A DNA stretch of 49,931 nucleotides from positions 1-49,931 of the forward strand of contig JAYUVP010000149.1 in assembly GCA_043753995.1 (NCBI GenBank), written 5' to 3'. The position numbers and the translations under genes are program-made. Under the pieces are notes generated by a model. The model was not told the origin of the DNA, did no database searches, and saw only the letters and a program-made list of their open reading frames with translations. Position 1 is the first letter of the stretch. Each line of letters starts with the position of its first letter. Positions 711 to 26,500 of the stretch are shown here, piece after piece. The DNA is from Fibrobacterota bacterium (lineage in GTDB: Bacteria > Fibrobacterota > Fibrobacteria > UBA11236).

Positions 711-753
711 CCAAGGCACGTCACAGAGGCATTACAGCAATTTCTGGCTTGCG
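711..753 (+). pseudogene. Short IS91-family transposase remnant (inverted relative to the other copies)
   Basis: ccaaggcacgtcacagaggcattacagcaatttctggcttgcg (HVTEALQQFLAC) aligns to the reverse complement of the remnants at 16973-17057 and 23164-23248. Confidence 0.45.
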
Positions 754-772
754 ACAATTGATGGATTATTGG

Positions 773-801
773 GTGCACAAGCAAATCATGTTTCCCATAA
801 A
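773..801 (-). repeat. Highly degenerate oriIS-like motif (copy A0)
   Basis: GTGCACAAGCAAATCA..TTTCCCAT matches 13/16 of GAGCATAGGCAAATCA and keeps TTTCCCAT after a deletion. Confidence 0.3.
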
Positions 802-811
802 TAACAGTCGC

Positions 812-912
812 TCCTAACTTTGAACTGAGCCAATAAAGGCCTTCAACAGGCTTGATTCAACGGCGGCCAAGAAGCTGGGCTGCGTTTCCGGTGCCCGCAT
901 TGCTGGTTAGAT
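812..912 (-). other. Possible degenerate integron attC-like site
   Basis: Minus strand ATCTAAC (912-906)...GTTAGGA (818-812), ~100 bp, downstream of the minus-strand gene pair. L boxes pair poorly. Confidence 0.25.
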
Positions 913-970
913 GCAACCCAACTGGCCTTTCTCTCCTGGCATAGAGATAAGGTTTGGAAATCAAATTAGA

Positions 971-1798
971 TCACGCCACAAACAGATCGCGCTGCTGCTC
1001 GTGGGGAATCGGAAAGACACCGATAATTACCCAAGGATTGGGTGCGCGGAAGTGGAATTCTTGCGTGGTCCCCAAGAAAAAATGAAGGTCGGTCTTGGCG
1101 AACGCATCCAAATATTTTTGCCGGACTTTCGCCAGGGCCTGACGCTCGTCGCCATCGCAGGACTTAATCGTGTTCCAGTACAACGCACCGGCTTCCCAAT
1201 CGAGAACCTGAAGCTCGCTGGTTTTCCCATCTGCGTCTTCGAATTTGTACGAAAAACTATACGGTAATTTGGGAATGACTTTGAATGTCTGACGCCAGGC
1301 GTCTTCTTCGAACAACTCCCGCTGACCGGTTTTGTCTCGCATCTCCCGAACTTTTTCGGGGTCCCAATCGCGTTCTTCTTCTTCACAACTGAATCCAAGG
1401 ATCCGCGTCGGCTTGAATACCGCTAAAGATACCTGGTTGCTTTTCGCGCCATCGATCAATTCCCCAAGGCGCGAATAAACCCGTGAAGTTTTAAGTAGAA
1501 GGCGACGGCGTTCACGCCAGTTATCAGTGGTGCCAACATGGGCCACTGAAGTGAGTTCAGCGAAATCTGCTGGCCGAAAAGTTTCTGGACGAGGATCGGA
1601 TTGATTACGATTGAGCCGGCATTCCACCCAATCAAACTTCGAATATTGCTGCGTCTCTTCCAGTCGCCGAAAGGGAACAGGATAAATTCTGATCCACGTT
1701 CCGTCTTCCCGAATGCCGGCAGTGCAAACCGTCTCCCCGTATCTTCTGGAGAGAGTCGGATATGTCTTCACGGTAATAAGAACGCGTTCCTTGGCCAC
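971..1798 (-). CDS. DUF488-associated conserved protein (dual OB-fold-like; ITVKTYP...YGETVCTAG...WIRIYPVPFR)
   Basis: ORF 971..1855. Likely GTG start at 1798 with GAGGA RBS, 7 bp after the DUF488 stop. Confidence 0.8.
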   Translation of the reverse strand: MAKERVLITVKTYPTLSRRYGETVCTAGIREDGTWIRIYPVPFRRLEETQQYSKFDWVECRLNRNQSDPRPETFRPADFAELTSVAHVGTTDNWRERRRLLLKTSRVYSRLGELIDGAKSNQVSLAVFKPTRILGFSCEEEERDWDPEKVREMRDKTGQRELFEEDAWRQTFKVIPKLPYSFSYKFEDADGKTSELQVLDWEAGALYWNTIKSCDGDERQALAKVRQKYLDAFAKTDLHFFLGTTQEFHFRAPNPWVIIGVFPIPHEQQRDLFVA

Positions 1799-1805
1799 TT
1801 CATCC

Positions 1806-2702
1806 TCATAGATGTGATGCAGTAAACTTTGATCCGAAATTCCGCTCCAACGCATCGGAAACGCAATGCCTGTGGCATTGATGCGGCATCCTTTCGAAGC
1901 ATGTCAAGGCGACTACCGAACCAGATGCTACCCAACCTTGGATTTTCTCCAGAGCTGGTGTTTGCTTCGGAAGGTCATCGCGTTCGTATTTCCGGAACAG
2001 GCGATCATAGTCCGCTTGCTGATCGAGGTCCTTGCGGCGTTCGGAAACGATTCCGAGTTCTGGCAAATGTTCGTAGTGGATGCCAAGGTTCTCGCAGCTC
2101 GAAGACAATGCCCCTTTGGAGAAACCGAATTTCCGGCTGATGGGATTGTTCCGTACATCGCAAAGCAGGTTGACGCCTGCTTGGAGGAGGATATTCAAGT
2201 ATCCCTCTAGGGTTCGCCCCTCATATCCCAAAGTCGCAACCGAAGGGATCTTTGGTTTAGGGCTTGCAGATTTTATTCTGCTTTGAGCCGACGCATCGCC
2301 TTTTAACACTCGATCTGAAATTTCCGATCGAACGGCATAGTAAGGGTAACGCCGATAGGTTTCTGCAACCAAATCATCCCCACGTACATTTCGATATTTT
2401 CGGACTAATTCAGAAATACGATCATTTATGTCACGATTATTGGCGATGGCTTTCTTTCCCGCCTCAGTTAGCTCCCAATGTTTTTCTGACCCGGTCAATA
2501 GTTCAAGTTGAGTCAGTTTGCGTCGGTCGGCGTAGGAGGTGAACGAAAACGCTCCAAACTTATAAGGCACGAATTCAAAAGGAGCCAGATCCCCTGCTTC
2601 TTGGCAGTACAGGAATAGCAACTTCTGAAAATCAAGGTTTAGAACTTTACCACCTAGGGAGTTCAGGAGAGCTAGTAACAATTTTTGTCTGGAAAATATC
2701 AT
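1806..2702 (-). CDS. DUF488 domain protein with N-terminal winged-helix (FQKLLFL...PYKFGAFS)
   Basis: TLGYEG, DVRNNPISRKFGFSK, YEHLPELG and CFERMPHQCHR motifs typical of DUF488. Confidence 0.85.
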   Translation of the reverse strand: MIFSRQKLLLALLNSLGGKVLNLDFQKLLFLYCQEAGDLAPFEFVPYKFGAFSFTSYADRRKLTQLELLTGSEKHWELTEAGKKAIANNRDINDRISELVRKYRNVRGDDLVAETYRRYPYYAVRSEISDRVLKGDASAQSRIKSASPKPKIPSVATLGYEGRTLEGYLNILLQAGVNLLCDVRNNPISRKFGFSKGALSSSCENLGIHYEHLPELGIVSERRKDLDQQADYDRLFRKYERDDLPKQTPALEKIQGWVASGSVVALTCFERMPHQCHRHCVSDALERNFGSKFTASHL

Positions 2703-2741
2703 ATTTATTTCTCAAAGATAGGCAAGGTCATTGACGAGCAT

Positions 2742-2828
2742 GAGCATAGGAATATCAAAACTCCTTTTCCATCAAAATCCGTTTTCTCACGCCTCATCCC
2801 ATTCAGCCCAAACCACCCCCACCCTTCC
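2742..2828 (-). repeat. oriIS-like end motif, copy A1 with ~50-bp extension
   Basis: GAGCATAGGAATATCAAAACTCCTTTTCCATCAAAA (minus strand ...GTTTTGATATTCCTATGCTC). Extension aligns with 7907-7958. Confidence 0.75.
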
Positions 2829-2849
2829 TCTTGCAGGGTTATTAGCGAA

Positions 2850-3881
2850 TTAGTCCGAAACACCGCCAGTTGTCGTGCGGGCCAGAAAGCCATCCCTTCC
2901 AGCCGCGAAAGCCAGGTTGCGGTCCACTGCCGAAACGATGAAGAGCGGTGAACCATAATCGGTCTTCTGGGTCCAATTCTCACCTCCATCCAAAGTTCTA
3001 AGCGAAACGCCGATACCCATGGCAAAGGCCGTTTCCGTGTTCACGGCTGAAACCGAAAAAAGTGAATGCGTAGTGCCACTGATTTGTCGAACCCATGTCA
3101 AACCCCCATCCGTGGTTTTAAGAATGGTCCCGTTCAATCCCACAGCCCAACCCACTCGCGCATCTACAAAGCTGACTGACTTTAGGCCTGGTAAGGAGTC
3201 TGCCGGACGGATAAACCGGGTCACATATCGGTTACCGTCCTTGCTTGTTTTGGTTATATAGCCTCCCTGATCGTCCTTCCAGTCCGAACCCACGGCAACC
3301 CAGGAGGATTCCGCGAGGAGCTGTACTCCCGTCAACCAGCCGTCCAAAGTGAAGGAAGCTGAAGTCCAAGTGGTTCCGCCGTCCAAGGTTAGGAATTGAC
3401 TGCCGTGAAGGCCAACCGTAATGGCGACCTGCGGGGATAGCATGTCAATAGCATTCAGGCCTCCAGACGATGCTGAATGGACCTGGGTCCATGACGCGCC
3501 CCCGTTGGACGTTTTGATGGTGACGCTTTTGTTGGCCTCGTTGTAGCCGGTTGCGATAGCGATATTCCCATCCCATGCTGACAAACCGCCAAGCGTCAAA
3601 ATGGTATTGGAAACCTGAATTTGCCAGGACTTCCCCCCGTTAACCGTTTTTGCAAGCAGGCCATCTTCGCCAGAGGCGAAAGCCGTATTGGCATCTACCG
3701 CGGATACGGCATAGAAGTACAGGGAGTCGACCAAGCTTTGACCTACCCAATCTTTGGAGATCGGATGAGTTAGAACCGGATTCCCGTCTTCTTTCCAACA
3801 CCCCACCCCATATAAAACTTGTAAGGGAAAGAGAAAGCCGATCCACCATGTCAGTTTTTTGCTACGGATGAAGCGCTTCAT
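2850..3881 (-). CDS. YCF48/BNR-repeat beta-propeller lipoprotein
   Basis: Repeated T-x-[DN]-G-G-x-[ST]-W motifs; hydrophobic N-terminus ending in VGC. Confidence 0.85.
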   Translation of the reverse strand: MKRFIRSKKLTWWIGFLFPLQVLYGVGCWKEDGNPVLTHPISKDWVGQSLVDSLYFYAVSAVDANTAFASGEDGLLAKTVNGGKSWQIQVSNTILTLGGLSAWDGNIAIATGYNEANKSVTIKTSNGGASWTQVHSASSGGLNAIDMLSPQVAITVGLHGSQFLTLDGGTTWTSASFTLDGWLTGVQLLAESSWVAVGSDWKDDQGGYITKTSKDGNRYVTRFIRPADSLPGLKSVSFVDARVGWAVGLNGTILKTTDGGLTWVRQISGTTHSLFSVSAVNTETAFAMGIGVSLRTLDGGENWTQKTDYGSPLFIVSAVDRNLAFAAGRDGFLARTTTGGVSD

Positions 3882-3883
3882 TT

Positions 3884-4147
3884 GCGCATAGGTAAATCAA
3901 AACCTCCTTCCAATCAAAATCCGGCTACTTCACCTTTGCAATCAAACGAATGCGTGCCGCCGCATTCCGGAAACAACACGCCCCCCACCAAAGACCCGCA
4001 GCATTAGCTCTTGCCCGGGGATGTATTAGCTCTAGCCATGCCCTGGGGGAAGGCGAGGCCGACAAGGGCGACGGGGTAAGGCGGGCCGAGCCTGGGGGGC
4101 GTTTGGGAAGCCCGGAACGAGCGGCTGAGCCCCCCGGAAATCCAGGG
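3884..4147 (-). mobile_element. Non-autonomous IS91-like mini-element (oriIS-like A2 at 3884-3923 plus C module at 4041-4147)
   Basis: GCGCATAGGTAAATCAAAACCTCCTTCCAATCAAAA at the left end. The C module is 100/107 identical to 23321-23427. Confidence 0.65.
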
Positions 4148-4157
4148 TACTTGCCCT

Positions 4158-5429
4158 TTACTTCCAGTTCTTCCGTTGGGGATTGGTCCAGGGTGATTTG
4201 CACATGATGCAATCGTCCCCGTAGAAGTAATTCTTCGCTCCCTGATCGTTATATATCCAATAGCGAATCCAGGCGATGATGGCGGGAGTCTCATTGCCCC
4301 CCTGCACCCCATTCACGATCCCTTGGATATACCCGTGATCGGCGCCGGTCATCATACCGAAAAAGGTTTGGGTCTTTGACGCCGCATAGCTCGGGGCCAG
4401 CCATGATTGGCCGCCATTCAGATCATTGGTACCGCCGATCATGAGCATGGGAACGCGGGTATCGCCCTCCGCCGAATGGCCGTGAATGGCCACAACCGTG
4501 GCGAGGGCTGCATGCCCTCCGATTTCGATGGACCCGGTGGCTCCCACGGAGTAACCCATGGCCACCCCTTTGTTGACGGCGATTTTGCCCTGATAGTCGC
4601 TACCGGCAACCGCATTCTGTGCGATGATCCACTCCAGTCCGGCAATCAAACGCTGACGCGTGACCGCGTCGCCCGGGCCGCCGGTGAGTGGCCGTGCGAT
4701 CACCACGAAACCGTGGCTGGCGATGCGCTGAATCAGATTGCTCAACTGCGAGACCTGCATACCCGTTCCCGGCCCGAAGGTGATGGGCGCGTGCAAGAAT
4801 CCATTGGCCCCCAGGGTCTTAGGCCGAATGATGGTGTAAGAGCCGTCGGGTCCTTTTCCGGTTTCGGTGACGACTTCATAGGGACCCATGGCCGAGTAAT
4901 TGGTCACCGGAGGCAGGGAGGAGCCGGCATTCAAAACTATGGCAAGGTTGGTTTGGCTATAGGAGTCGATGGGAGTTTTTACGGAGGTAAAGCCGGCCTT
5001 TTCGGTCAGCAAGGTGTCGACTGCCGCAGCCGTCGCCGACTTCCGGGCCAGCACCGCTGAAGCTTCGCTTTGCGCGGCTCTAAGTACCAAGGGGATATCG
5101 GCTATCCTTTTCCCATCCGCAGCGAACAGGGCGGTGGTGCTAGCCAAGTCGGAGGCCGCGAAGGCAAATCGAAATTGGCTACCGACAAGGGAGCCTCCTT
5201 TGATTTTTTGGGCCTGCGCACTCGAAAATCCCCGATCGAATACCGAAACCGATGGGTTAATCGTGAATGCCCCCGAGGCATTGGTATTGACGTGAACCGA
5301 GGTATCCGACACCAGGGAAACCTTGGCGCCCGCGATGGCGGCTCCTTGATTGTCTTTAACGGTTCCCGTGAGGGCGAAAACCTGCCCTCCCATCATGAGA
5401 AACGCCCACATTCCAACTGAAAAACGCAT
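4158..5429 (-). CDS. Secreted alpha/beta-hydrolase (cutinase/chlorophyllase-like) with N-terminal carboxypeptidase-regulatory-like domain
   Basis: Signal peptide; GTVKD..GAAIAGAKVSL; GPY, ASHGFVVIA, nucleophile G-Y-S-V-G, GGTND, GADH. Confidence 0.8.
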   Translation of the reverse strand: MRFSVGMWAFLMMGGQVFALTGTVKDNQGAAIAGAKVSLVSDTSVHVNTNASGAFTINPSVSVFDRGFSSAQAQKIKGGSLVGSQFRFAFAASDLASTTALFAADGKRIADIPLVLRAAQSEASAVLARKSATAAAVDTLLTEKAGFTSVKTPIDSYSQTNLAIVLNAGSSLPPVTNYSAMGPYEVVTETGKGPDGSYTIIRPKTLGANGFLHAPITFGPGTGMQVSQLSNLIQRIASHGFVVIARPLTGGPGDAVTRQRLIAGLEWIIAQNAVAGSDYQGKIAVNKGVAMGYSVGATGSIEIGGHAALATVVAIHGHSAEGDTRVPMLMIGGTNDLNGGQSWLAPSYAASKTQTFFGMMTGADHGYIQGIVNGVQGGNETPAIIAWIRYWIYNDQGAKNYFYGDDCIMCKSPWTNPQRKNWK

Positions 5430-5737
5430 ACCAACCCCTTATCTGATCGTCTTTTTCCGCAAAGTCATGATAAGCCCACGAAGGATAATTCGCTTGATGA
5501 TGGACGATAATTTCTTCCTTGGAACTTTCTAGCGGCCTGGGTTTCGCCATCTTTGGCGGACCTTTTGGCCTCCGTTGCCTATGCATTTCCATCCCCATTG
5601 ACATTTTCCTGCACCGAATTATCCACCCCATTCCATCAACTGCTTTATGTGACAAGAGAAGAAATTCATTTGGGCGAAACGTTTCGAAAGGCATTGCCCG
5701 AGTGGAGATACGAAGGGTTATGGATATCACATATTGG

Positions 5738-5872
5738 ATTGGAGGTCGCGTCATTGACCGGCCCAGTGAAATGCCACACACCTTGAAACCCGTTGGTTGT
5801 CTTGAAAACTGCCGCTCCATTGGACCTGTCAGGAACCGCGCCCTTGAGTGGGTGCCACACCATTTGAACGAT
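5738..5872 (-). pseudogene. Internal fragment of a DUF2341/LamG-type protein
   Basis: IVQMVWH..SNGAAVFKTTNGFQGVWHF..NDATSN resembles the DUF2341-LamG junction motif; no plausible full ORF around it. Confidence 0.5.
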
Positions 5873-5997
5873 GTTCGCGCCTGCAGGGGATGTATTGAGG
5901 TGAATACAATGGCCGCCATGCGTGAGATAAGAGCAAGTGGACCGGGATATTCGTTCTTGATTCCTATTTTTCGACTGCGCCGGAACCCCTTGGAGTA

Positions 5998-6819
5998 TTG
6001 ATGCGAAAATCCACGCTTGCTTACCTACTCTGCGGTTGCATACTCACCGCCGCCGCTGCGGTATGCGCCGGTGGCTGGTTCATGGTCTATAACTTCAAGG
6101 GAAGCGTCGGCAATTATCCTATCACCTTGAGCTTCCAGATGCTCAAAGTGGATTCAACTTGTAAAACCACTCACGGCGCGCCTTGCCACAATCTGACGGG
6201 CCTGTATAAATACGATAAAGTGAATGAGATGATTCCGTTGCGTGGCGACCTCATCTGGAAAACCGGACAGGTTGTTTTGGAAGAGATGAAACCGGGCAGC
6301 TCCCTCCGGTCGGCGGCATCGCCGAAGTCCCTCCAGGCTCGTTTCGAGTTCCAGTTCAGCAAAGGCTCCACCCAAGGGACCTGGAAATCCCTGAAAGGTC
6401 CCCGGGCCTATCCGCTCCGTCTTGATTTCGTTTCTTCCTTGATCGACACTTTCAATACCTTCCGTGACAGCACGGAAAAATCAGACGGCGTTGTGGATAT
6501 TCCGATGCATGTCACCGCAGCCAATCAATATTTCGTAGGCGTATACGATTACGATTATCTGAAGTACCAGGAGCGCGGCGCGGTGTTGACGTCCATCAAG
6601 GTGCTCGATAAAAAAACCAATCGTCTCATCCAAAGGATCGAAATGCCTCTGGAAGGACATGCCTCGATGGGGGCTAACGTGACCACTATTTACGAAAACG
6701 TTGGCCTGGAAAAGGGCGTTTTGTGGGTTTCCTTCGGCAGCGGGGGGAGGAGCGATGGCGCGCTAGAGTATCGGTGGAATAAGCGGAAATCCCGGTATGT
6801 CATGATGCCTGAGGAGTAA
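5998..6819 (+). CDS. Hypothetical secreted protein
   Basis: 273-aa ORF with N-terminal hydrophobic signal; FKGSVGNYPITL...GLYKYDK..IPLRG motif. Confidence 0.7.
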   Translation: MMRKSTLAYLLCGCILTAAAAVCAGGWFMVYNFKGSVGNYPITLSFQMLKVDSTCKTTHGAPCHNLTGLYKYDKVNEMIPLRGDLIWKTGQVVLEEMKPGSSLRSAASPKSLQARFEFQFSKGSTQGTWKSLKGPRAYPLRLDFVSSLIDTFNTFRDSTEKSDGVVDIPMHVTAANQYFVGVYDYDYLKYQERGAVLTSIKVLDKKTNRLIQRIEMPLEGHASMGANVTTIYENVGLEKGVLWVSFGSGGRSDGALEYRWNKRKSRYVMMPEE

Positions 6820-6960
6820 GGGGGTTGGAGCATCTCAAGAATCTTATCAATCGAGGCGACTCGATAACTGAATCCAAAAGATCGGTGCGATTTCGTGTGG
6901 GCCGCCAAAGCCGAGTCCTTGCTTCTTCCCTGAAGGGTCCCCTTGCTAGATTGATGACGC

Positions 6961-7863
6961 ATGGGAAACCCGTCCCTCGCTCCATGGTTTCGGATTTTGA
7001 TCGCGCTCCCCGCCGCGGCGTCCATGCTCTGCGCCTGCGCCGGCTCCTTCCTCTTCGAGGACATGCACGCCGAATACCAACCGACCGAAATCCCCGCCGT
7101 GTTCGCATCCGGGAAGCGCGGTTGGATCCTTTCGGGATTCATCACCGGCAACAACCAGGATCCCATCCATTTCCTGCGCGAGGATTCGGTGTGGTGGGAA
7201 TCCGCGGATAGCTCCAGATTCTTCCTCGACTCCGGCGCATCCTTCTCCCAACGTACTCCCGGGGTGCTGCACGGGGACTACCGCATCGAACGCAGCCGAA
7301 TCCAGGTAGGCGGCGCCCTCGCCTACCAGCGCCGGCATTGGTTCTGCGGGGTTTCGCTGGCCCAAGGCTCCTCCCTTGGTTTGGGTCAGGTGGGAGCCTT
7401 CGGGGGCTGGTCCCAGCCCATGGGCAATTGGGTCCCGCTCATCGCCGGAGGTGGGTACGCGAATCGGGTGCGGACCACGGGGAAGGTTTGGCATGAAATA
7501 GCAACCTTTCCCATTCCCATTGGGGAAAACGGCACGCCCGATGGCTATTTCCCGGATACCGCCCAGGGGCACAGAACCCATTTTTCCATGCCCGTGCGGA
7601 TAGGTGTCCTTTATAGGGTGGGTCGGGACTTCGCGCCTTATTTCACCCTCGCGGGCAACTCAGTGTCCGTGTGGCCGGGAGAGGAGGATGACCCCGGCCG
7701 ATACGAGGTATTGGATTCCGATATTGCCCTGGGTGCGAGATATTCTCCCTATCCGAACATGACATTGGGAGTGGAGCTGGCCTTGACGACGGTGGACGGA
7801 CCGAACTCCTATTCGGCAGATGCGGCCAAGGTGGCGCTTACGGTGGAACGGGCCTGGCGGTGA
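6961..7863 (+). CDS. Hypothetical lipoprotein / outer-membrane beta-barrel-like protein
   Basis: 300-aa ORF, signal ending in LCAC, alternating amphipathic strands, aromatic residue near the C-terminus. Confidence 0.65.
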   Translation: MGNPSLAPWFRILIALPAAASMLCACAGSFLFEDMHAEYQPTEIPAVFASGKRGWILSGFITGNNQDPIHFLREDSVWWESADSSRFFLDSGASFSQRTPGVLHGDYRIERSRIQVGGALAYQRRHWFCGVSLAQGSSLGLGQVGAFGGWSQPMGNWVPLIAGGGYANRVRTTGKVWHEIATFPIPIGENGTPDGYFPDTAQGHRTHFSMPVRIGVLYRVGRDFAPYFTLAGNSVSVWPGEEDDPGRYEVLDSDIALGARYSPYPNMTLGVELALTTVDGPNSYSADAAKVALTVERAWR

Positions 7864-7869
7864 ACCACC

Positions 7870-7958
7870 GAGCCTAGGTAAATCAAAACCCCTTTCCTAT
7901 CAAAAACCGCCTTCTCCCACCACAATCCATTCACCCCAAGGCACAACCCAAGCTTCCC
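7870..7958 (-). repeat. oriIS-like end motif, copy A3 with extension
   Basis: GAGCCTAGGTAAATCAAAACCCCTTTCCTATCAAAAACCGCCTTCTC, starting 6 bp after the 7863 stop. Confidence 0.8.
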
Positions 7959-7989: not shown

Positions 7990-8174
7990 CGAGGTAGCGT
8001 CCCGGTTAACCCAATCAGTCCGGATACTCCGGCCGGGCGACCGCAAAAGGAGTTTTTAGACCGGCTCAAATAACCGCTTTGGGTTCCTTTGCAGCAATTC
8101 CGTCACCACCGGCTATTTGAAGCCAGCACACCCGAATGAAAAACTATGATATACTCAAACAGGAACAATCCTTT

Positions 8175-10745: not shown

Positions 10746-10749
10746 TGAT

Positions 10750-14026: not shown

Positions 14027-14044
14027 GGCTTCCCCTCCACCTGG

Positions 14045-16491: not shown

Positions 16492-16517
16492 GCGCTCCCT
16501 GGCGCCGTTCTCCGGCG

Positions 16518-17179
16518 GGGCATGGGTCAATCAAAAGCCACTTGCTATCAGATTAGAATGGAATGGGAAACCAAATGAATAGAACGGGGCGGACTATTGC
16601 TGTAACGGTTTTCTGTGCTCTTTCTCAAGTCAATGGATTCGTCCCCACTTACATAGACATTACATCCATTCAATATTCATTCTCGAATAGCCAGAATGCG
16701 CAAAATGTGGCTTTGAATGCATCGATTTATGAAATGAAAAATTTTGGCGCCGTAGGCTCACGCATGGGTCGGCCTGGGTATTGTGGGCATAGAATTTTCT
16801 CACTATGCACACCCTCATGGCCGTGAATAGGAGCTGTCGGCTTATCTGGCATTGGGTTCGATTTTATTCTTGCTTTCAAAACAATAAGAGTCAACTTTAC
16901 GGCCTTTGGGTACTCCTAAGACGCACCTCCCTGCTTCAGGGCATCGACTGTCACTTTAAATCGGTATTGCCCCGATTCCATGCGAGAGAATACCGCAAGT
17001 GAGGAATTGCAGTAACTCCTGTGTGACGTGCTTGGGAAGACAATTGCCGGTTTCGGAGTCGTCCCATATTCGCTCGAAGAGGGTCAAGCGTCAACAAGGG
17101 CGACAGGGGAAGACGGGCCGAGCCTTGGGGGCGTTTGGGAAGCCCGGAACCAGTGGCTGAGCCCACCGTAAAACCAGGG
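16518..17179 (-). mobile_element. Degenerate IS91-like mini-element: oriIS-like A6 (16518-16552), transposase remnant (16973-17057), C module (17085-17179)
   Basis: A6 matches copy consensus at 27/35; same module order as 23115-23427; ~400 bp of unrelated gene scraps between A6 and the remnant. Confidence 0.6.
16973..17057 (-). pseudogene. IS91-family transposase N-terminal remnant
   Basis: SETGNCLPKHVTQELLQFLTCGILSHGI; 74/85 nt identical to 23164-23248. Confidence 0.7.
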
Positions 17180-17332
17180 CAAGCGGCCTCCGCTACCCAC
17201 CTGTTCAAGCGCCTGCGAATGCAGGGAATCAACCTGGTTATTCGTGATGCCAAAAAAATAGTGTGCGACATTTTTAGTAGAGAAGCTCTCTAATCCTAGA
17301 CGGAAATAAATCCGCAACTCGAAAGATGAAGC

Positions 17333-18112
17333 ATGTTAAGGAAATTCTTAATCGCCTCCATACCGACCATCGCCTTGATTGGTTGCCTGAATGAATCCGT
17401 TGAAGCCCCGGTTCAGCATCATTCCCAAGCTGGACAACCTGAATCAGCCATCGAACTGAGGACCTTGGAAACACCTGTAAAAATCAAGGTGGGCGCGAAA
17501 TCGGTGACGGTCTATCGATCGCCGGATGGCTTTGATGTGATTGAATCCACCCAACCGAAAGGGGAAGCGTCTTTGCTTACCCCTCAAATGAGCGGAAAAA
17601 CTTGGAAGGAAATCGCGGAAACCATTGCACCCGGAAGCGAGGTGGCACCGAGCCATGCAAATGAAATCTATCTGGGAGAAACGGGTATTCCCTCCCCTGT
17701 CGAAATGGCGCCCATGGAGGGACAGTTCAATCCATCCCTGACAACGGATATTCTAGGGAAGAAAGCCGCAGATGCGGCCTGGTTCCAACAAAACTTTTGC
17801 ACCGTAGGCTTAGCCTTCAGTTGGTGTCTTCTGAATCGATGGGGAGGCAATGATTGGGGACAGACGAATGCCAAATATTCGAAAGCACATATCATTATGA
17901 ATTCGGGTTCTCAGGTCGTATTCTCCATCAAATCCGGAGGGAAGCGCACATTGACGACCACCATTTTGAACGACAATATCGTCCATTGGTTTCAAACCTT
18001 CAGCAGTCGGGTGGATGGTATTTACAGATTGGAATCACACCGTTATGACATCACCAACTCCGATGTCGCGAATAACAACTGGCATTGGTCCTGTTACGCG
18101 ACCACTTGGTGA
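17333..18112 (+). CDS. Hypothetical lipoprotein
   Basis: Lipobox LIGC; LGKKAA linker before a Cys/Trp-containing C-terminal domain. Confidence 0.75.
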   Translation: MLRKFLIASIPTIALIGCLNESVEAPVQHHSQAGQPESAIELRTLETPVKIKVGAKSVTVYRSPDGFDVIESTQPKGEASLLTPQMSGKTWKEIAETIAPGSEVAPSHANEIYLGETGIPSPVEMAPMEGQFNPSLTTDILGKKAADAAWFQQNFCTVGLAFSWCLLNRWGGNDWGQTNAKYSKAHIIMNSGSQVVFSIKSGGKRTLTTTILNDNIVHWFQTFSSRVDGIYRLESHRYDITNSDVANNNWHWSCYATTW

Positions 18113-18319
18113 AATCATAGGAGGACCCCTATGAATCAAAAGCAATAGTGGTCCGAAAAAGCTGTCCCTCCGGCGGGTCGCAGATTGCATACTCTAAAAT
18201 AGGCCATGGCCTTGGCTCCGAACCCCTCAAAAACTCCTGAGGGATCTCCTCTTTAGGCTCCCTCTTTGTTTACTATCACGCGGGGTTGTGCTTGGATTGT
18301 AGATGGGGAGCCAAAGAAA

Positions 18320-18778
18320 ATGGACATAGCAGATCGAATAGCAATCATTCAAACCTTGCTTTCCACGCAACGGAATAAGCAATCCGAATACGAACGCGAA
18401 TCCGCCGCTCTGGATCAAGCGGCGGCCCTGGAAACCAAAAGCAGCGCTGGGGACAAATATGAAACCGGCCGCGAGATGATCGCGCAAAGCCGCAACATCA
18501 TCCAGCGCAATTTGTCGGAGGCCGTTGCCAACGGCGATGCCTTGCAGCGCATGGCAGTGGCGGCTTTACAAGACCGAATCAGTTTCGGTACCCTGGTGGA
18601 GACGAGCCTGGGATGGTATCTCCTGGGCGTCGGCCTTGGCGAGTTGGAATACCATGGAATCCGCATCGGCACGGCATCGCTGGCCAGTCCACTGGGTGCG
18701 GCCTTGAAAGGCAAGCGCGCAGGCGACAAAATTCCCTGGAAAGGTGGGACCTTGGAGATTTTTGCCTTAAGGCATTAG
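18320..18778 (+). CDS. GreA/GreB-related protein (ETKSSAGDKYETGR subfamily)
   Basis: ETKSSAGDKYETGREM, ISFGTLVET, SLASPLGAALKGKRAGD; GGGGAG RBS before ATG 18320. Confidence 0.8.
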   Translation: MDIADRIAIIQTLLSTQRNKQSEYERESAALDQAAALETKSSAGDKYETGREMIAQSRNIIQRNLSEAVANGDALQRMAVAALQDRISFGTLVETSLGWYLLGVGLGELEYHGIRIGTASLASPLGAALKGKRAGDKIPWKGGTLEIFALRH

Positions 18779-18900
18779 CTCCCGGCCTTTGTTCCACTTT
18801 GCAAAGCATATCCCTGCCTTGTTTATCGTTCGGCGCGACGCGGCGGGCATAGGCCTGACCGGGAATCCATGGTTGATGTTACGGTGATCACTTATTCAGT

Positions 18901-19131
18901 CAGATAACCTATTCCCTCCTCTGACTCCAGGGTTTTTGCCCTGGTGGTGACTGGCCCCCGGGATGTTGCGTTGGGTCGCCGATTGGCTTGTCTAGGTGGT
19001 CTTATCCATGTTTCGTAGCATCGACTCCTCGGTTACTTTCACGGCTCTCGAAGAGCGCATTTTGGCCATCACCATTGCAAGGAGCGCGACGATGCGTTCA
19101 AGCAGAGCATAGCCCGGAAGCCCAAGGCCAA
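18901..19131 (+). pseudogene. ileS: Second partial duplicate of ileS promoter/leader and first ~38 codons
   Basis: Aligns to 23465-23691; ATG intact at 19008 (MFRSIDSSVTFTALEERILA), then a 14-for-6-nt replacement frameshifts it. Confidence 0.92.
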
Positions 19132-19141
19132 AGGAAACCGT

Positions 19142-20440
19142 TCATTCCAAGAACAGGGCTTGGGTATAGGTGCTGATATTGGATTTCTCGCCCTCGGGAG
19201 TGTTCTCGGGGAGGGGCGACTCAAATTCGATGCGGGCGTAGCGCATACCTTTATAATCGGACACGGGAGTTTTTCCGTCAAACGCGCGTGCGAGGTCCTG
19301 GGTCGGCAGCCACAGCAAGAGCTGATACTCCTCGGTGCCCTGGGACATCGACTTCTTGCCCACGAGGTAGATTTCACGCGGCAGCATGTCTCCGTTGAAC
19401 GGATCTGCCGGAGGCTGCAAAGCACCGAAGGGATAGCGAGCTGGGTCGAAGCGGTAGATGAGCGGCTTGTGCAAAACCACCTCCCCACTAGTCCTGTCTA
19501 CCGTGAAGAGCTTGACGCAGATTTTTTCCGTGAACTTTACATAGGGCCCCATGTAAAGGGTGGCCGCGACCAGGATGCCCTGCTTCCCACCGCGCAGCGA
19601 AGGCTTGTAACGGTAGGACCAACCGGAATCGGGATGGTAATGCATGAATAATGGGTAATAACTCGCGATATCGGTCGAGTCTCCGTTCGGCCAGAAATAG
19701 TGAAGGAGCGGGTTCATGAGGGAATGGGATAAGTTGACGCCTACCGCTAGGTGGAAAACCTGGGCGGGTGTCGCCGTCTGGTGAACTGACACAACCTGGT
19801 TGGCGACCAGGCTCGAGTTGTATCCGAAATATTCCAACTCGGAAAAATCGTCCACGTAGCCGTTTTTATCTTCGTCGACGCCATTCCCCACGCTCGTCAT
19901 CGGGACGCGGAAAAACGTTTCAGAGCCGGATGGGAAAAAGTCCCGTCCTCGCCTCAAGGTATAGTCGGCGCCCCTGCCATCATGGTATTCTGCCACCAAG
20001 GAATCCTCATTGGAAAAATTCTGTGCAAGGATGAATTCCAGGGCGATGATTGGACCCGACTCCACGGTGAAGTGGCGGCCCCACTCCTTGGAATCATTTT
20101 CCACCATCAAGGTTTCCTGGAAGGGATGAAAAACCTCCAGCGAGTCGTAAGCCCCCCAGTCCCCCATCAGGTCAATGAACTCCTTCGTGTTCAAGGCGCG
20201 ATGATCGGAAAGGGAAAACTCGCGCACGGGGGAACGGTACTGGCGGCAGCCCCTGAATCCAATGCTGTCCCCGTAACCGAAGGCATACTCTACGCAACGA
20301 TTACGGATGATGCGGAGCATCTTCACGTCGGGTGCGGCTGTGGGATTTCCGGTCCCAGAGGAGTTTTCACATCCGCAAAACGGCACGGACACGGTTGCTA
20401 GGAGGAAAAGCAGATTGCGGAGGCGCGGCATGACTGACAT
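19142..20440 (-). CDS. Hypothetical lipoprotein
   Basis: ORF 19142..20647; likely start 20440 giving a signal peptide ending in FCGC. Confidence 0.7.
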   Translation of the reverse strand: MSVMPRLRNLLFLLATVSVPFCGCENSSGTGNPTAAPDVKMLRIIRNRCVEYAFGYGDSIGFRGCRQYRSPVREFSLSDHRALNTKEFIDLMGDWGAYDSLEVFHPFQETLMVENDSKEWGRHFTVESGPIIALEFILAQNFSNEDSLVAEYHDGRGADYTLRRGRDFFPSGSETFFRVPMTSVGNGVDEDKNGYVDDFSELEYFGYNSSLVANQVVSVHQTATPAQVFHLAVGVNLSHSLMNPLLHYFWPNGDSTDIASYYPLFMHYHPDSGWSYRYKPSLRGGKQGILVAATLYMGPYVKFTEKICVKLFTVDRTSGEVVLHKPLIYRFDPARYPFGALQPPADPFNGDMLPREIYLVGKKSMSQGTEEYQLLLWLPTQDLARAFDGKTPVSDYKGMRYARIEFESPLPENTPEGEKSNISTYTQALFLE

Positions 20441-20789
20441 GAAAATACCAAGCTTATTTTGAGAGATACCCCGCTCCGATACTAAAGTCGACGCGGTAAA
20501 AAATACGCGGCAATCAGCAGCCGACGGTATCTCGCATTGACCCAAAAAAAATCTCCTTAGGCTCAATTCCAATTCGAAAAACCAGGCGCCCGAGGCGGTG
20601 TTCAAGGAGAAGTAGAGGCCTCCCGAAGCGCGATTTTGGCGGCTCAAGAATGCGACGGCGTCGATTATAGCGCCGAAGTCCCCGACAGCGCAATTTAACC
20701 TCCACTTCGGGGGGGAAGCTTTGGTGCCGAAAGCGTGACGGAACAGACTATTTTAGGCTCGCGCATTTCATTTTTATTGGAGGGTTCAA

Positions 20790-23102
20790 GTGAAAAACCG
20801 AGTCGCTTTTCCGGCTCTGCTATCGGCATTGCTGATAGCTAATCTCTACGGTGCCGTAGATACCGTCTTCACGCCTATCCAGGAACGGATTCTCGCAGGC
20901 ACCGATGGCAGTCGAATCGCCTACTCGCGCGATGGCGCGACACGCCTCGAATGCGAGTCGGATACAGTTCGGTTATACGACATGGGCTCACCGACCCCGA
21001 TTCAGAGTTTCAAAGTCCCCTTTATTATCCACAGCCTGCTGACGCCGCAATACGCTCGGGGGTCCGATGGTTTCATTGCGGTGGAGGGATGGGCAAACAA
21101 TAGCTATGCCGTTTACAAAATCTCCCTTCCATCCGGGGCGGTGGTCAAAGCCTTCTCGCTCCCTTCGTATGACGCCGTGGGACAAATGTTTTTTTCCGAG
21201 GATTTTTCGCTGGCCATCACCAGGCAAGCGGACACCACCTACTCGTTATTCGCTAACTCGTTCTCGGAAGTCGGCAAGGATTCGACCCGAAAATGCTTGG
21301 TCACTCCCAAGAAAAAGAAATTCGATTTCGCCACGTTCTCTCCCGACAAGAAAAAAATCGTCGCCGTTTCGCGGGCCGACACTTCGATTCAGATCTGGGA
21401 CGCCGCCAAAGACACCCTCCTGCAAGTCGTGAAATTCCCCCGGGAAATATTCGAAAAGGCTCACTTCAACCGGAGTGGCTCCCGGATATTCGTCCCCACC
21501 CTATCGAACCTTTCCGGCACCCAAGACGGGTATGCGATGGTCGATGCAGAAACCGGCGCATTACTCGGCGTCGACACCACCAATGCCTGCAAAATCCGCT
21601 ATTGGTTCATCAGCGAACTCCATTTCGACATTTCCGCCAACGACTCCTTGCTGGCCATCGGCGACGGATCCAATACCGGAGTCATCGATCTTTCCACGCG
21701 AACCTGCAAAGCCTCATTCCGAGGCCCGGTTCCCAATGACGATTGGGTGATAGGTCGCCCGGCTTTTTTACCCGGAGACACCTCCATCCAAATTCCGGCA
21801 TATCACAATGGAAGCTCGACATACCGCTGTTACCGGCAAAACGTCAATACCCGCAAGTTGCAAACGGTTTTCTCCAGGCAAGACCGGCCTTCTCCCGACT
21901 ATATCGGCTTCAACCAAAAAGGAGAGCCGCTTCTGGGCGGCTCCTACCGCTATTCAGGCATGGACAGCTATTCTGGCTTATACAAATTCGACACCCTGAT
22001 TTATTGGAATGCTGTGACGGGGAAGGAATTCTTGAAGCGCCTGCCGATAAGCCAACCGAGATCGGGCTCTACCGCCCTCTTCCATTCTTTTTCGCCCGAT
22101 GGAATGCGGTTGATTCGGGAATACTGGTATCTCGACTACGGCAATTATGCCCTTACGAAAATCGACATTTCCGACATCTCCGATACGGGACGCGTGGTGG
22201 CCTCCATCGGGTATGCCAACGGCACCCTGGTGCTTGCCCAGAATCATCGGTCGGTACTGAGTTTCGAAAGCAATACGGTGGCCATCACAGACACATACAC
22301 CGGAGACTCCTCGCGCATACCTTTCAAGTTGCCGCAGGGCTGGAAAGCCTGGGGCGCAGTGCCGGAGCGCAATATCGTTTTTGCCTGCAGCTCCTACCAG
22401 AAAGACAATCTCGCGAACCTGAGTTATTGGTTGACCGTGTGGAATCTCCGCACCAATGAAAAAATCAGCGACTTTGCCTTGACTAGTTTGGGCTGGTCCG
22501 ATGCCCATTACCAGAGTTCTCAGCCCAAGGTGCTGCTCACCCCAGACGGCCAGGAAATCATCGTGGCCTCGGCCAGCGGCGTCAAGAAAATGGACTTGGT
22601 GACAGGTAAGGAAAACCGATGGTTTTCCTGGAAAGAAGTGCGCTTGGTGCAATTTTCCCCCGGCGGCAAGCACCTTCTCATCGGCGACAGTTGCTATTCG
22701 ACCGACACCTGGGAAATGGAGCGCGTCTACTCCAAGGCTGGCTTGGCGAGTGTGGCCTTCAATCCCTTGAAGCCCAACGAATTTGTTTCCGGCACCAAGA
22801 CTTGGGAGCTTCCCGGCCCAAGCGAATCCCTGGCGCCCGGTGCGGCACCTAGGCGGCAACTCGGCTCCATCCGGCCTATCGGTGCGAGAAGCCTTCTCAT
22901 CGAGGTGCCGTCGGCGCAAGGAGAAAAGGCGAGCTTCGAATTATTCCAATCGGAAGGTCGCTGTGTCCTGAAAGCGCAAACCATTCTCGGCCGCGCGCGC
23001 CAGGTGGTCGCGATTCCCGAATTGGCGGCAGGCAGCTACTCCTATCGCCTGGAAGTGCCCGCCCTATCCGTGCGAGCGCAGGGAACCCTGGTCGCTCGCT
23101 AG
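20790..23102 (+). CDS. Secreted WD40-like beta-propeller protein with T9SS-like C-terminal domain
   Basis: Signal peptide; FSPDKKK, IQIWD, FSPDG, LTPDG, FSPGG repeats; C-terminal LAAGSYSYRL. Confidence 0.85.
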   Translation: MKNRVAFPALLSALLIANLYGAVDTVFTPIQERILAGTDGSRIAYSRDGATRLECESDTVRLYDMGSPTPIQSFKVPFIIHSLLTPQYARGSDGFIAVEGWANNSYAVYKISLPSGAVVKAFSLPSYDAVGQMFFSEDFSLAITRQADTTYSLFANSFSEVGKDSTRKCLVTPKKKKFDFATFSPDKKKIVAVSRADTSIQIWDAAKDTLLQVVKFPREIFEKAHFNRSGSRIFVPTLSNLSGTQDGYAMVDAETGALLGVDTTNACKIRYWFISELHFDISANDSLLAIGDGSNTGVIDLSTRTCKASFRGPVPNDDWVIGRPAFLPGDTSIQIPAYHNGSSTYRCYRQNVNTRKLQTVFSRQDRPSPDYIGFNQKGEPLLGGSYRYSGMDSYSGLYKFDTLIYWNAVTGKEFLKRLPISQPRSGSTALFHSFSPDGMRLIREYWYLDYGNYALTKIDISDISDTGRVVASIGYANGTLVLAQNHRSVLSFESNTVAITDTYTGDSSRIPFKLPQGWKAWGAVPERNIVFACSSYQKDNLANLSYWLTVWNLRTNEKISDFALTSLGWSDAHYQSSQPKVLLTPDGQEIIVASASGVKKMDLVTGKENRWFSWKEVRLVQFSPGGKHLLIGDSCYSTDTWEMERVYSKAGLASVAFNPLKPNEFVSGTKTWELPGPSESLAPGAAPRRQLGSIRPIGARSLLIEVPSAQGEKASFELFQSEGRCVLKAQTILGRARQVVAIPELAAGSYSYRLEVPALSVRAQGTLVAR

Positions 23103-23114
23103 TGCCAATGACAG

Positions 23115-23427
23115 GAGCGTAGGCAAATCAAAACCCCTTTCCCATCAAAACAATGCATTTGCGCGATGCCATGGGCGAGTATGCCGCAGGTCAGGAATTT
23201 CAGTAACGCCTGTGTGACGTACTTGGGAAGGCAATTGCCGGTTTCGGAAGAATGGTGGATAAAATCACGATTCAAAGGAACAGGTTGCTGTGTCTTACCG
23301 TGCACCACTTCGCAGCAATACCCTGGGGGAAGGCGAGGCCGACAAGAGCCAGTGAGTAAGGCGGGCCGAGCCTGGGGGGCGTTTGGGAAGCCCGGAACGA
23401 GTGGCTGAGCCCCCCGGAAAACCAGGG
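23115..23427 (-). mobile_element. ileS-proximal internally deleted IS91-like element (oriIS-like A7 23115-23150, transposase remnant, C module 23321-23427)
   Basis: GAGCGTAGGCAAATCAAAACCCCTTTCCCATCAAAA joined directly to the transposase remnant; C module bounded by CCCTGG...CCAGGG. Confidence 0.7.
23151..23250 (-). pseudogene. IS91-family transposase zinc-binding-domain remnant
   Basis: LPKYVTQALLKFLTCGILAHGIAQMHC resembles the IS91/IS801/IS1294 motif LP.FV..EF..YL.CG.L.HGF.R..C; truncated at the oriIS-like motif. Confidence 0.7.
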
Positions 23428-23473
23428 TAAACCCGCATTTTCAGGGCAATGGCACCTCTAAACCCAGATAACC

Positions 23474-23575
23474 TATTTTTCCCGCCTCTGATCCCAGGGT
23501 TTTTGCCCTGGTGTTGACTGGCCCCCGGGATGTTCCGTTGGGGCGGCTGATATGCTTGTCTAGGTGGTCCTATCC
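23474..23575 (+). promoter_or_regulatory. ileS candidate -10 box and structured leader with RBS
   Basis: TATTTT at 23474; hairpins CCAGGGT-TTTT-GCCCTGG and GCCCC...GGGGC; AGGTGG RBS 8 nt before the ATG. Confidence 0.4.
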
Positions 23576-26500
23576 ATGTTTCGTAGCATCGACTCCTCGG
23601 TTTCTTTCACGGCTCTCGAAGAGCGCATTTTGGCTTTGTGGGAGCGCGACGACGCGTTCAAGCAGAGCATAGCCCGGAAGCCCGAGGCCAAGACTTTCGC
23701 TTTCTTCGACGGGCCGCCTTTCGCCACGGGTTTGCCGCATTATGGACATTTGCTGGCCGGCACCATCAAGGACATTGTGCCGCGCTATTGGACTATGCGC
23801 GGCTATCGCGTGGAGCGCCGCTTCGGTTGGGATTGCCATGGCTTGCCCATTGAGAATTTGATTCAAGACGAGCTCAAGCTGCATTCCGTGCGCGATATTC
23901 AAAGCTTTGGCGTCGACAAATTCAATGAGGCTTGCCGCGCGGGCGTGCTGAAGTATACCGCCGAGTGGCGCAAGACCGTAACGCGTATGGGACGGTGGGT
24001 CGATTTCGACAATGATTATAAGACCATGGACCTCTCCTTCATGGAGTCGGTGTGGTGGGTCTTCAAGCAATGCTTCGATCAGGGCCTCATCGATCAAGGC
24101 TGGCGCATACAGCCTTATAGCCCGGCCCTGGCGACGCCGCTTTCCAATTTCGAAGTCAATCAGGGTTATAAGGATCGCCAAGACCCCAGCATCACCGTGA
24201 TTTTCCCGCTCGAAAGCCATGACAATCAGGGCGGCGACGAGAATTTCCTGGTATGGACCACCACGCCTTGGACCTTGCCCAGCAATCTCGCGGTGGCGGT
24301 GAAGGCCGATCTCGACTATGTGCTCGTCGATTATAAAGGCGATGCCAAGGGCGAAAGAGCAGGAAAATATTGGGTGGCCGAATCGCGGCGCTTGCACTTT
24401 TTCGGCGAAGGCGATGCCGTGATCAAGCGAGCGAAAGGCTCGGAACTCGCGGGACGTCGTTACAAGCCTCTCTTTCAGTACGCCCCATACTTGAGCGAAA
24501 AGCAATACTCGCTTTTGCTCGCCGAGTTCGTGAGCGATAGCGATGGCACCGGCGCGGTGCATATTGCCCCGTCTTTCGGCGAAGAAGATTTTCAGCTGGG
24601 CATGCAAGAGGGTTTGGGGCTTTGGGATCCGCTGGATGCCGAAGGCCGCTTCACGCATTTGGTTCCCGAATGGAAAGACATCGGTGCCAAGGATGCCGAC
24701 AAGAGCATCATTCATCGCCTCAAAAGCGAAGGTCGCATTTTCAAGCATGAGACTCTGGTGCACAGCTATCCGCATTGCTGGCGCACCGACGTGCCCTTGC
24801 TGTATCGCGCCTTGAAGGCTTGGTATTTGCGCCTCGATCGCGAATTGACGGGTCCGGACGGAACGCGCAAAACACTGAAGCAATGGATGATTGACAGCAA
24901 TCAACAAATCAATTGGGTCCCGGATCACATCAAGGACGGGCGTTTCGGCAAATGGCTCGATGGCGCCCGCGATTGGAATCTCTCGCGCAATCGCTTCTGG
25001 GGCACATGCATTCCCGTGTGGATTGGCGAAGACGGCGAAGGCATGATTTGCATCGGCAGCCGCGAAGAATTAGAGCGCCTATCGGGCGTCAAGGTCGACG
25101 ATTTGCACAAGCATATCATCGATCCCATTGTCATCCGCACCAAGGACGGCAAGACTTTCGACCCGCAGGGCAAGGCTTATCGCCGCACTTCCGAAGTGCT
25201 CGATTGCTGGTTCGAGTCGGGATCCATGCCCTATGCGCAAAATCATTATCCCTTCGAGAATCGCCGCGAGCTGGAAGAGCATTTCCCCGCCGACTTCATC
25301 GCCGAAGGGCTCGATCAAACGCGCGGTTGGTTTTACACCCTGACCGTTCTCTCGGCGGCTTTGTTTCAAAAACCGGCCATGAAGAATGTGATTGTGAACG
25401 GCATCATTCTGGCCGAAGATGGCCAGAAAATGAGCAAGCGTTTGCGCAATTATCCCGATCCGAATGAGCTCATCAATCGCACGGGCGCCGACGCCATTCG
25501 CCTCTTCATGATTGATTCGGCGGCGGTGAAGGCCGAAGATTTGAAGTTCTCTGAAATCGGTGTGAAAAACATCATTCGCTCGGTTTTGCTACCGCTATGG
25601 AATTCAGCTTGCCTCTTCGTGACCTATGCCAATGCCGACGCGGCCAAGGGCCAGCTCTCTTGGCGCCCAGGGCAGAAGCTGCGCAGCCCGCATGAACTCG
25701 ATCGCTGGATACTCTCCGATTTGCAGGGCCTGCTTTTGCAGGTGCGTCGTGAAATGGACGGCTATCGCTTATACAATGTGGTGCCCGCCGTGGTGGCCTT
25801 TGTCGACGATCTGACCAACTGGTATATTCGCCGCTCGCGTCGCCGCTTTTGGAAAAGCGAAGACGACAGCGACAAGAATTTCGCCTATGCCACGCTTTAC
25901 GAAGTACTCACCACTTTCGCGCGCGTGATGGCGCCTTTCTTGCCTTTCCTGGCGGAAGAATTGTGGCAAGTACTAGTGCGCGAGCCCTTGGCGGCGAATG
26001 CAGTGGGTAAAACGTCGGGTGCGGCGGACCTTCCCCTTTCCGTGCATTGGGCCGACTTTCCCGAATTTGAAGCGGCGCTTTATGACGAAGGCCTCAATGG
26101 CCGCATGCTTCGCGTGCGCCAGGCCGTCACTCTCGGGCGCGGCTTGCGCTCGGCTCATAATTTGAAGAATCGCCAGCCGTTGCGTCGTCTCATCGTGGTT
26201 TTGCGCAATGAAGCCCAACGCGAAGAGATGCTGCAAAACGAAGAGTTGGTGCGCGAAGAATTGAATGTCAAGCACCTCGAAGTGACGCTCGATGAGTCGA
26301 CTTTGGTGACCTATCGCGCCAAGGCCAATTTCAAAGCCCTCGGGGCTAGGCTCGGCAAGGGCATGAAGGCTTTCGCAGACAAAATTGCCGCCTTGCCGCA
26401 TGCCGAAGTAGCGCGCTTGGTGGCTGGACAAAGCTTGGAAATGGACGGCATCACCGTGACGGCTGCCGACATTTTGGTGCAGCGCGATGTGATGGAAGGC

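Follow-up and report, generated by a model that had tools for sequence, protein, structure and literature searches.

A probable fossil array of ISCR-like IS91-family elements directly upstream of ileS in a Fibrobacterota genome

Why should the start of an essential gene be present more than once, in pieces, in front of its intact copy? The question is raised by contig JAYUVP010000149.1 (C149 here), which was analysed whole (49,931 nt, called the window below) and belongs to a 5.2-Mb, 356-contig metagenome assembly of a Fibrobacterota bacterium. This contig carries an intact ileS, encoding isoleucyl-tRNA synthetase, and to its left two truncated copies of the ileS leader and first codons (ileS′), set among unrelated genes, fragments of a transposase gene and two short repeats that we call A and C. 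A preliminary description had proposed that these parts form a new gene-capture system built by rolling-circle elements. On our best reading the locus is a fossil array of IS91-family insertion sequences (IS) resembling elements of the ISCR type (insertion sequence common regions), all in one orientation and directly upstream of ileS. In this genome it has ceased to be active.

Profiles of A and C were built and used in nhmmer searches of the whole 5.2-Mb genome, and transposase remnants were located by tblastn with an intact 532-aa relative from a genome of a sister genus (G011). Every item in the order previously listed for A, C, the remnants and the ileS′ copies was confirmed, and the remnants at 18783-18848 and 14747-14857 are additions to that list (Table 1). 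The single orientation claimed for A, C and ileS′ also held, with comparison of the first 27 kb against itself returning direct repeats only, at 75-92% identity. To the right of ileS, the contig holds no match to A, C or the transposase.

Such an arrangement might in principle be an assembly or binning artefact, in which repeats have joined contigs of different strains or places. The genome is a 356-contig metagenome assembly, contig word depth is about 7-8 in the Logan contigs of two sequencing runs, and the same runs hold extra C-leader junction variants: in both, 794-nt contigs about 93% like C join a C-tail variant (23477) to ileS position 23605. This joint points to at least one further C-ileS′ junction outside the assembled genome. 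Repeats as diverged as those in the window, however, are too different to collapse, and Logan contigs, produced by a second assembler, bridge 9075-12379, 12384-13184, 14164-19032 and 19109-23387 with 0 differences. Because both runs are probably the source sample, these contigs are not independent data; in run X3, next to none of the stretch is present. We regard an artefact as exceedingly improbable.

The elements are of the IS91/ISCR type, as had been supposed from the letters of the DNA. The relative in G011 is an uninterrupted 532-aa open reading frame (ORF; P0001) that matches Zn_Tnp_IS91 (E 1.9e-17) and Y2_Tnp (E 1.3e-18). Its identity to the ISCR1-family transposases of enterobacterial plasmids is about 33% across 95% of its length, and by the repeat boundaries within G011 the element extends over L015:3260-5279. 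The four window remnants, which are too short alone for Pfam and were assigned through tblastn with P0001, differ in their internal deletions and follow the predicted strand and order: A, then the minus-strand transposase, then C, then ileS. Elsewhere in the genome, the Pfam IS91 transposase models match as fragments only, on contigs C242 and C224. The C242 copy is a 293-aa remnant between A and C, with A downstream of its 3′ end, and thus has the same relative order as the window. Used as a query against the 32 genomes of the family (this genome, G000, and 31 others), the C242 fragment found matches in 12, some of them with more than 20; this tally takes in the unpublished G008, from which no result given here derives. 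The fragment at 18783-18848 (residues 318-339) recurs on contig C65.

Repeat A marks the end at which replication of these elements would have started. Its outer edge, GCATAGG(T/C)AAATC, is the reverse complement of the right end of the G011 element (...GATTTACCTATGC), a boundary that 16 matches within G011 define, one of them at the place of the query and 15 elsewhere, and that ends ...TTTACCTATGC. A is therefore an oriIS-type end (oriIS, the origin end of such elements), the same end being borne by an intact IS91-family member in a relative. At the intact element itself (G011 contig C232; L015 5250-5310), the right end is tandemly duplicated as two copies of about 29 nt, each ending GATTTACCTATGC. 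With A so assigned, the window elements are oriented such that replication would run rightwards, toward ileS. Beyond CCTATGC the flank reads TCN at 7 of 10 ends, giving CTCN with the last C of the end; judged from these 10 junctions, CTCN may correspond to the IS91-family target or cleavage tetranucleotides, CTTG, GTTC and CTCG, which it resembles. An outward sigma-70-type promoter in A, as an analogue of POUT of ISCR1, was not found in 2500-4300 or 22900-23700, by a consensus that may not apply to this phylum.

A is enriched at this locus. Five of the eight strong copies genome-wide (nhmmer, E 1e-13 to 1e-12) lie in a 21-kb part of the window, all on the plus strand. Two weak copies, A4 and A6, have E values of 0.33 and 0.25 genome-wide and of 0.0017 and 0.0013 within 27 kb. 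The enrichment at ileS that the preliminary description expected of both repeats thus stands for A; C is distributed differently, with only 4 of its 24 full copies in the window.

C had been taken as a proper end of the IS family. It is instead a dispersed, lineage-specific intergenic repeat that stands in for the canonical left end. That left end is common to G011, C224 and C355 (z 5.7, 3.6 and 2.4 against shuffles) and is absent from the window copies. The idea that C is the ancestral terIS (the terminus end) was ruled out, as the reverse complement of C gives z <1 against the G011 left end and against the regions upstream of both other N-terminal remnants. With the canonical left end missing and C unrelated to it, the window copies are terIS-less, as is ISCR1. 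Three A-to-C units with differing deletions (272 bp, 322 bp and about 1.03 kb) nonetheless retain both ends, as non-autonomous derivatives do, which suggests a role in cis acquired by C, possibly that of a poor terminator.

C is also a small finding separate from the array: an intergenic repeat, about 110 nt long, that is structured and confined to this lineage. The genome has 44 matches on 27 contigs, including 24 full-length copies on 13 contigs. None of the 24 overlaps an ORF of at least 120 aa, and convergent gene ends lie within 70 nt of the right edge of C in 11. Its fold was assessed on 21 of these copies, leaving out C68:20003 (split over two loci), C94:385 (partial) and C98:7612 (with a 30-nt insertion). 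Two helices are kept in 96.5% of cells, compared with 29-64% when the partners are slid; 8 compensatory cells occur in three pairs, and the covariation score was reached by 0 of 500 shuffles. Since the compensatory changes come mostly from one of at least three subfamilies distinguished by their tails, they may represent few events. Copies on one contig are nearly always co-oriented, and a replication-strand cause for this was rejected, with GC skew around 26 C copies showing no consistent sign. Rfam offered no family for C or the leader: the whole window had 0 matches that reached the gathering score, and 23250-23600 only two chance-level ones (E 8.5 and 9.2). C is absent from the other 31 family genomes. 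Neither an exact 24-mer nor a degenerate two-block pattern of C had a match in the GTDB species collection, and the latter had none in JGI metagenome contigs, two collections from which records of this genome may be excluded.

What, then, are the partial copies of ileS? Between ileS and the copy at 13215-13490 there are 15 synonymous changes and 10 non-synonymous ones (pS 0.34, pN 0.068, the proportions of synonymous and non-synonymous sites changed), where about 25 non-synonymous changes would be expected had the copy been a pseudogene since the split (binomial P 0.02). The 42 codons after its frameshift hold 10 synonymous and 4 non-synonymous changes (P 0.009), and its leader is 84% identical to that of ileS. 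This mostly synonymous divergence indicates that the copy was a working ileS 5′ end for most of the time over which the two diverged. The signal would fit an incoming allele having taken the place of the ileS 5′ end. The coding part of the copy at 18901-19131 is much closer to ileS, with 1 synonymous change and 6 non-synonymous ones, of which several fall in the indel region; this nearness in sequence would be consistent with the nearer copy being the younger.

C runs straight into the ileS leader at the resident locus and in three further places (13108, C65:5057 and C65:36162). The 3′ limits of the ileS pieces vary (23511, 23578, 23691, 23772 and 23794), as one-ended transposition would be expected to give; by eye, no consistent motif at these limits suggests a shared termination tetranucleotide. 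On C65, ileS pieces lie at 5195-5241, 35882-35945 (stray; codons 52-73) and 36251-36308, with C at 2596, 5057, 15609, 24543 and 36162, and the other genes of that contig (L055-L057) include one for an Old Yellow Enzyme-type oxidoreductase, a chemotaxis operon and one for an arginine deiminase-like protein. C65 may be a leftward continuation of the array past the window, or C together with the leader may move alone.

Partial direct repeats of a housekeeping gene around foreign blocks are also typical of integrative islands. A tandem series of such islands at an att site in the 5′ end of ileS, each bringing a replacement 5′ end and having since lost its integrase, would account for the synonymous-rich older copy as a replacement end of foreign origin. 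The repeats, however, are 230-280 bp long, 86-88% identical and ragged at their 3′ limits, rather than a short exact core, and an IS91-type end unit lies exactly between cargo and ileS. There is also no Phage_integrase (PF00589) or Resolvase match on the 49.9-kb contig (7 and 1 elsewhere in the genome), so that the array is integrase-free, as previously asserted. Integrative islands are in our view very unlikely here.

Rolling-circle elements offer a more direct precedent. Reportedly, a model in which circles are rescued by homology was put forward for ISCR1 by Toleman et al. in 2006. According to one account, aberrant rolling-circle replication of ISCR1 yields circles of cargo, partial anchor and ISCR that are rescued by homologous recombination at the anchor, and repetition extends the array (PMC6834847). 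Another source gives a termination failure of 1-14% for IS91 and IS1294, which co-mobilises flanking DNA with variable end points, and describes the two ends as functionally distinct (PMC13181058); general ISCR features are covered by two more (PMC13393415, PMC3575428).

Applied to the window, this model would run as follows. A module starts at A, where replication would begin, continues through the minus-strand transposase gene, now mere scraps, and in the window copies ends in C in place of terIS. With the terminator gone, replication from the copy abutting ileS would have run on into the ileS leader and its first 40-70 codons, and such read-through would have produced transposition units of the form A-transposase-C-ileS′, with or without further DNA, X. 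Most likely, circular products would then have recombined by homology, either with the 5′ end of the resident ileS or with an IS copy already in place. A circle A-transposase-C-ileS′-X that recombined with ileS would give ileS′-X-A-transposase-C-ileS, and each such event would leave a truncated ileS′ to the left and push older units away from ileS.

Two units of the array have this form. The rightmost (18901-23576; ileS′, two genes, A7, a remnant, C, ileS) matches it exactly, and that at 13108-14770 (C, ileS′, hcp, A5) has it as well. We infer that the ileS′ copies came from read-through, that the circles integrated by homologous rescue and that C served as a substitute or leaky terminator; from geometry and the codon-position signal, ileS is proposed as the homology anchor. 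We put the probability of an origin by read-through and homologous rescue at roughly 0.55.

Several observations weigh against that origin, and we gather them here. No intact transposase was found in this assembly with the Pfam models or by tblastn of the genome; the preliminary description had suggested looking for one flanked by A and C, and every copy turned out to be decayed. The units are incomplete, with no C to the left of 18901, no remnant between A3 and the C at 13108, and weak A4 and A6, so that the rescue model needs extra deletions. A 272-bp mini-element, formed by A2 and the C at 4038-4150, sits between two co-directional genes that are otherwise only about 12 nt apart, as if it had simply inserted into a gene pair already present. 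The codon signal of the older ileS′ comes from 64 codons, and ordinary allelic recombination at ileS would yield the same. No circle junction was seen in contigs of the source runs, in which the joints found have sides of 20-44 nt at repeat copies and are explained by other repeat copies. A transposase remnant flanks only 4 of the 24 full C copies, on the left and always on the same side and strand, and C is mainly a dispersed repeat. Contig C65 has five co-oriented C copies among ordinary genes, including the chemotaxis operon, and no A, which implies that co-orientation of C alone needs no IS process. The ileS-leader pieces that follow C on C65 are far from any known ileS and are unaccounted for unless C65 extends the array leftwards. 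On contig C122 of G002, a genome of a sister genus, three A-type ends (GCATAGGTAAA) at 26990, 30619 and 34360 are each followed by a minus-strand remnant, co-oriented and with no ileS, so an ileS anchor is not required for such arrays. Finally, the evidence for the array is one metagenome-assembled genome that has no close relative.

A rival account starts from an accessory island that was already there and into which the IS and its mini-derivatives inserted independently, many times over. The strand bias of single-strand (HUH) transposition would then have set the orientation, the ileS′ copies would be read-through products re-inserted close by, and ileS would have had no anchor role. Besides the mini-element and the G002 array, this account would suit the edges of A and C, every one of them at 4-42 nt from a gene start or 8-33 nt from a stop, as expected of intergenic insertions, and the co-orientation of C in places without an IS (C65, 5 of 5; C68, 3 of 3). 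It sits less easily with GC skew that does not follow the orientation of C, with five of the eight strong A copies of a 5.2-Mb genome in 21 kb ending exactly at ileS, and with two units that keep the exact order of anchor, cargo and oriIS. Nor does purifying selection in the older ileS′ suit a local read-through copy that was dead from birth. We hold independent insertion to be on the unlikely side.

Among the relatives, the array upstream of ileS is absent from all 15 that could be read (of 31 family genomes), all of them distant (73-81% IleS identity). Transposase remnants, A and second ileS 5′ pieces were found in none of 14 upstream regions (2.7-12.5 kb), nor on G011 contig C447. An apparent second ileS fragment in G011 was merely a 127-nt contig overlap. 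The G002 array (26990-37650; L018, L074) has a spacing of about 3.7 kb, a possible fourth end at about 37567 and, after it, a homologue (47% identity) of the 518-aa ORF of the window (ORF518). Arrays of this kind thus arise where no housekeeping gene serves as anchor, perhaps through recombination inside the IS. The label of a new system therefore overstated the case, there being no intact transposase, no array at ileS of the 15 relatives and, in G002, an array that lacks ileS.

The genes carried between the elements are unrelated and mostly exported, as previously noted: by eye, at least 10 of about 19 ORFs have signal-peptide or lipoprotein-like N-termini. Their GC content per kb ranges over 43-67%. 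Homologues of 21 window ORFs are missing from the 2.7-12.5 kb upstream of ileS in 14 relatives, and in the 31 family genomes the 501-aa ORF (ORF501) has no homologue, the GH123-like protein only weak partial matches (3 of 31) and ORF518 homologues in 6, once beside IS remnants (G002). Given the spread of GC content, the lack of counterparts at the ileS genes of relatives and this patchy occurrence, the cargo looks accessory, and ORF518 may be a recurrent passenger of this IS family. The cargo is also tightly fitted: an A edge lies 4, 20 or 42 nt from the starts of three genes that read leftwards, and 8, 14 or 28 nt past the stops of three that read rightwards. The hcp gene looks like an orphan away from a cluster for the type VI secretion system (T6SS), and contig C278 holds a 71%-identical paralogue at 11885-12382. 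No tRNA or tmRNA gene was found in the window.

Table 1. Positions and supporting evidence for the array, its cargo and ileS (nt of the window; T9SS, type IX secretion system)
Feature	Position	Strand	Evidence or remark
DUF488 pair, PADLOC candidate defence pair PDC-M19B/A	971-2702	-	E 2e-110 and 1e-100, nearly end to end; DUF488
A1, oriIS-type end	2738-2796	+	nhmmer E 4e-13; outer edge GCATAGG at 2744; 42 nt from start codon of leftward PDC-M19A/DUF488 gene
BNR/Ycf48-like lipoprotein	2850-3881	-	Pfam; N-terminus
A2, oriIS-type end	3879-3936	+	nhmmer E 5e-13; 4 nt from ATG of leftward BNR lipoprotein gene
C copy 1, at terIS side	4038-4150	+	nhmmer 104 bits
PETase-like esterase (minus) and three ORFs without a family, two lipoprotein-like	4158-7863	.	
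A3, oriIS-type end	7869-7919	+	nhmmer E 1e-13
Block from A3 to C: GH123-like protein with T9SS tail (43% GC) and two ORFs without a family	8136-13009	.	
C copy 2, runs straight into ileS′ copy	13108-13223	+	nhmmer 105 bits
ileS′, older copy, leader and codons 1-66, pseudogene	13215-13490	+	86.4% to 23494-23772; ATG to CTG, 1-nt deletion; pN/pS 0.20 against ileS
hcp (T6SS tube protein TssD)	13523-14050	-	Pfam E 1e-32, NCBIfam E 4e-45
A4, terminal 17-19 nt of A only	14042-14060	+	nhmmer E 0.0017 in 27 kb; 20 nt from hcp ATG
A5, oriIS-type end	14709-14770	+	nhmmer E 8e-13
Transposase remnant, residues 446-482 of G011 relative, beside A5	14747-14857	-	tblastn E 3e-5 in 27 kb, 0.006 genome-wide
518-aa lipoprotein without a family, 67% GC, between C-terminal and N-terminal transposase remnants	14935-16491	+	
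A6, degenerate A copy	16517-16550	+	nhmmer E 0.0013 in 27 kb
Transposase remnant, residues 37-77 (zinc-ribbon region)	16965-17087	-	tblastn E 8.5e-9 genome-wide
C copy 3	17067-17181	+	nhmmer 86 bits
Two ORFs without a family, one lipoprotein-like	17333-18778	+	
Transposase remnant, residues 318-339 (ARRVAPNDKQGRDMLC, just before catalytic Tyr motif)	18783-18848	-	tblastn E 3e-5 in 27 kb, 0.006 genome-wide
ileS′, nearer copy, leader and codons 1-39, pseudogene	18901-19131	+	87.7% to 23465-23691; 8-nt insertion and stop
501-aa ORF (minus) and 770-aa beta-propeller protein with signal peptide	19142-23102	.	
A7, oriIS-type end	23109-23167	+	nhmmer E 9e-13
Transposase remnant, residues ~46-79, fused straight to A7 (internal deletion)	23150-23240	-	tblastn E ~8e-9 genome-wide
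C copy 4, 146 nt upstream of ileS ATG	23318-23430	+	nhmmer 104.5 bits
ileS, intact isoleucyl-tRNA synthetase, right limit of array	ORF 23564-26839, likely ATG 23576	+	Pfam tRNA-synt_1 E 2.5e-135

How does the array compare with known capture systems? It shares with ISCR1 and the complex class 1 integrons the combination of Zn_Tnp_IS91 and Y2_Tnp, an oriIS-type end beside the cargo, a missing terIS and no need of an integrase, as well as co-oriented units of partial anchor, cargo, oriIS, transposase and anchor. Whereas the anchor of ISCR1 is the 3′ conserved segment (3′-CS) of the integron and its cargo consists of resistance genes, here an essential chromosomal gene supplies the repeated anchor, with its leader and 5′ end, and the cargo comprises exported, defence-candidate and T6SS genes. 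Further differences from ISCR1 are the structured, genome-wide repeat of about 110 nt in the place of terIS, the decay of all copies, a host that is an uncultured sediment bacterium and the lack of a detected sigma-70-type outward promoter in A. Dissimilar ends, no terminal inverted repeats, no target duplication and a CTCN flank resembling the family tetranucleotides are shared with IS91, IS801 and IS1294, from which the elements differ in their low identity and different left end. Like integron arrays and clusters of attC sites lacking integron-integrases (CALINs), the locus has co-oriented structured repeats between packed, unrelated and often exported or defence-type genes. Unlike them, it has no IntI or tyrosine recombinase on the contig, a spacing of 0.15-6 kb and genes on both strands; attC forms one bulged hairpin, whereas C folds as two separate helices, and by eye no R″/R′ core sites were seen in C.

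Two points are new: the repeated segment is the leader and 5′ end of an essential gene and bears a signature of allele replacement, and a structured host repeat takes the place of terIS. As a doubtful extension of the read-through and rescue origin, we suggest that a terIS-less element capped by a host repeat could have made the 5′ end of an essential gene a homology landing pad, at which circles of C, ileS leader and 5′ end, and cargo, some from other lineages, would integrate with no recombinase, supplant the working 5′ end of ileS each time and pile up exported, T6SS and defence-candidate genes upstream. To our knowledge, nearly all known gene capture of the ISCR type is from resistance plasmids of clinical Proteobacteria, and we know of no case in which homology rescue of read-through circles was seen directly. 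The array suggests that capture of the ISCR type has shaped the chromosome of an uncultured sediment bacterium, with the start of an essential gene as the repeated segment, and it has left a series of displaced 5′ ends of ileS that can be dated. Should related strains be found, the locus would put the rescue model to a natural test, and likewise the idea that such arrays collect genes for surface, secretion and defence functions.

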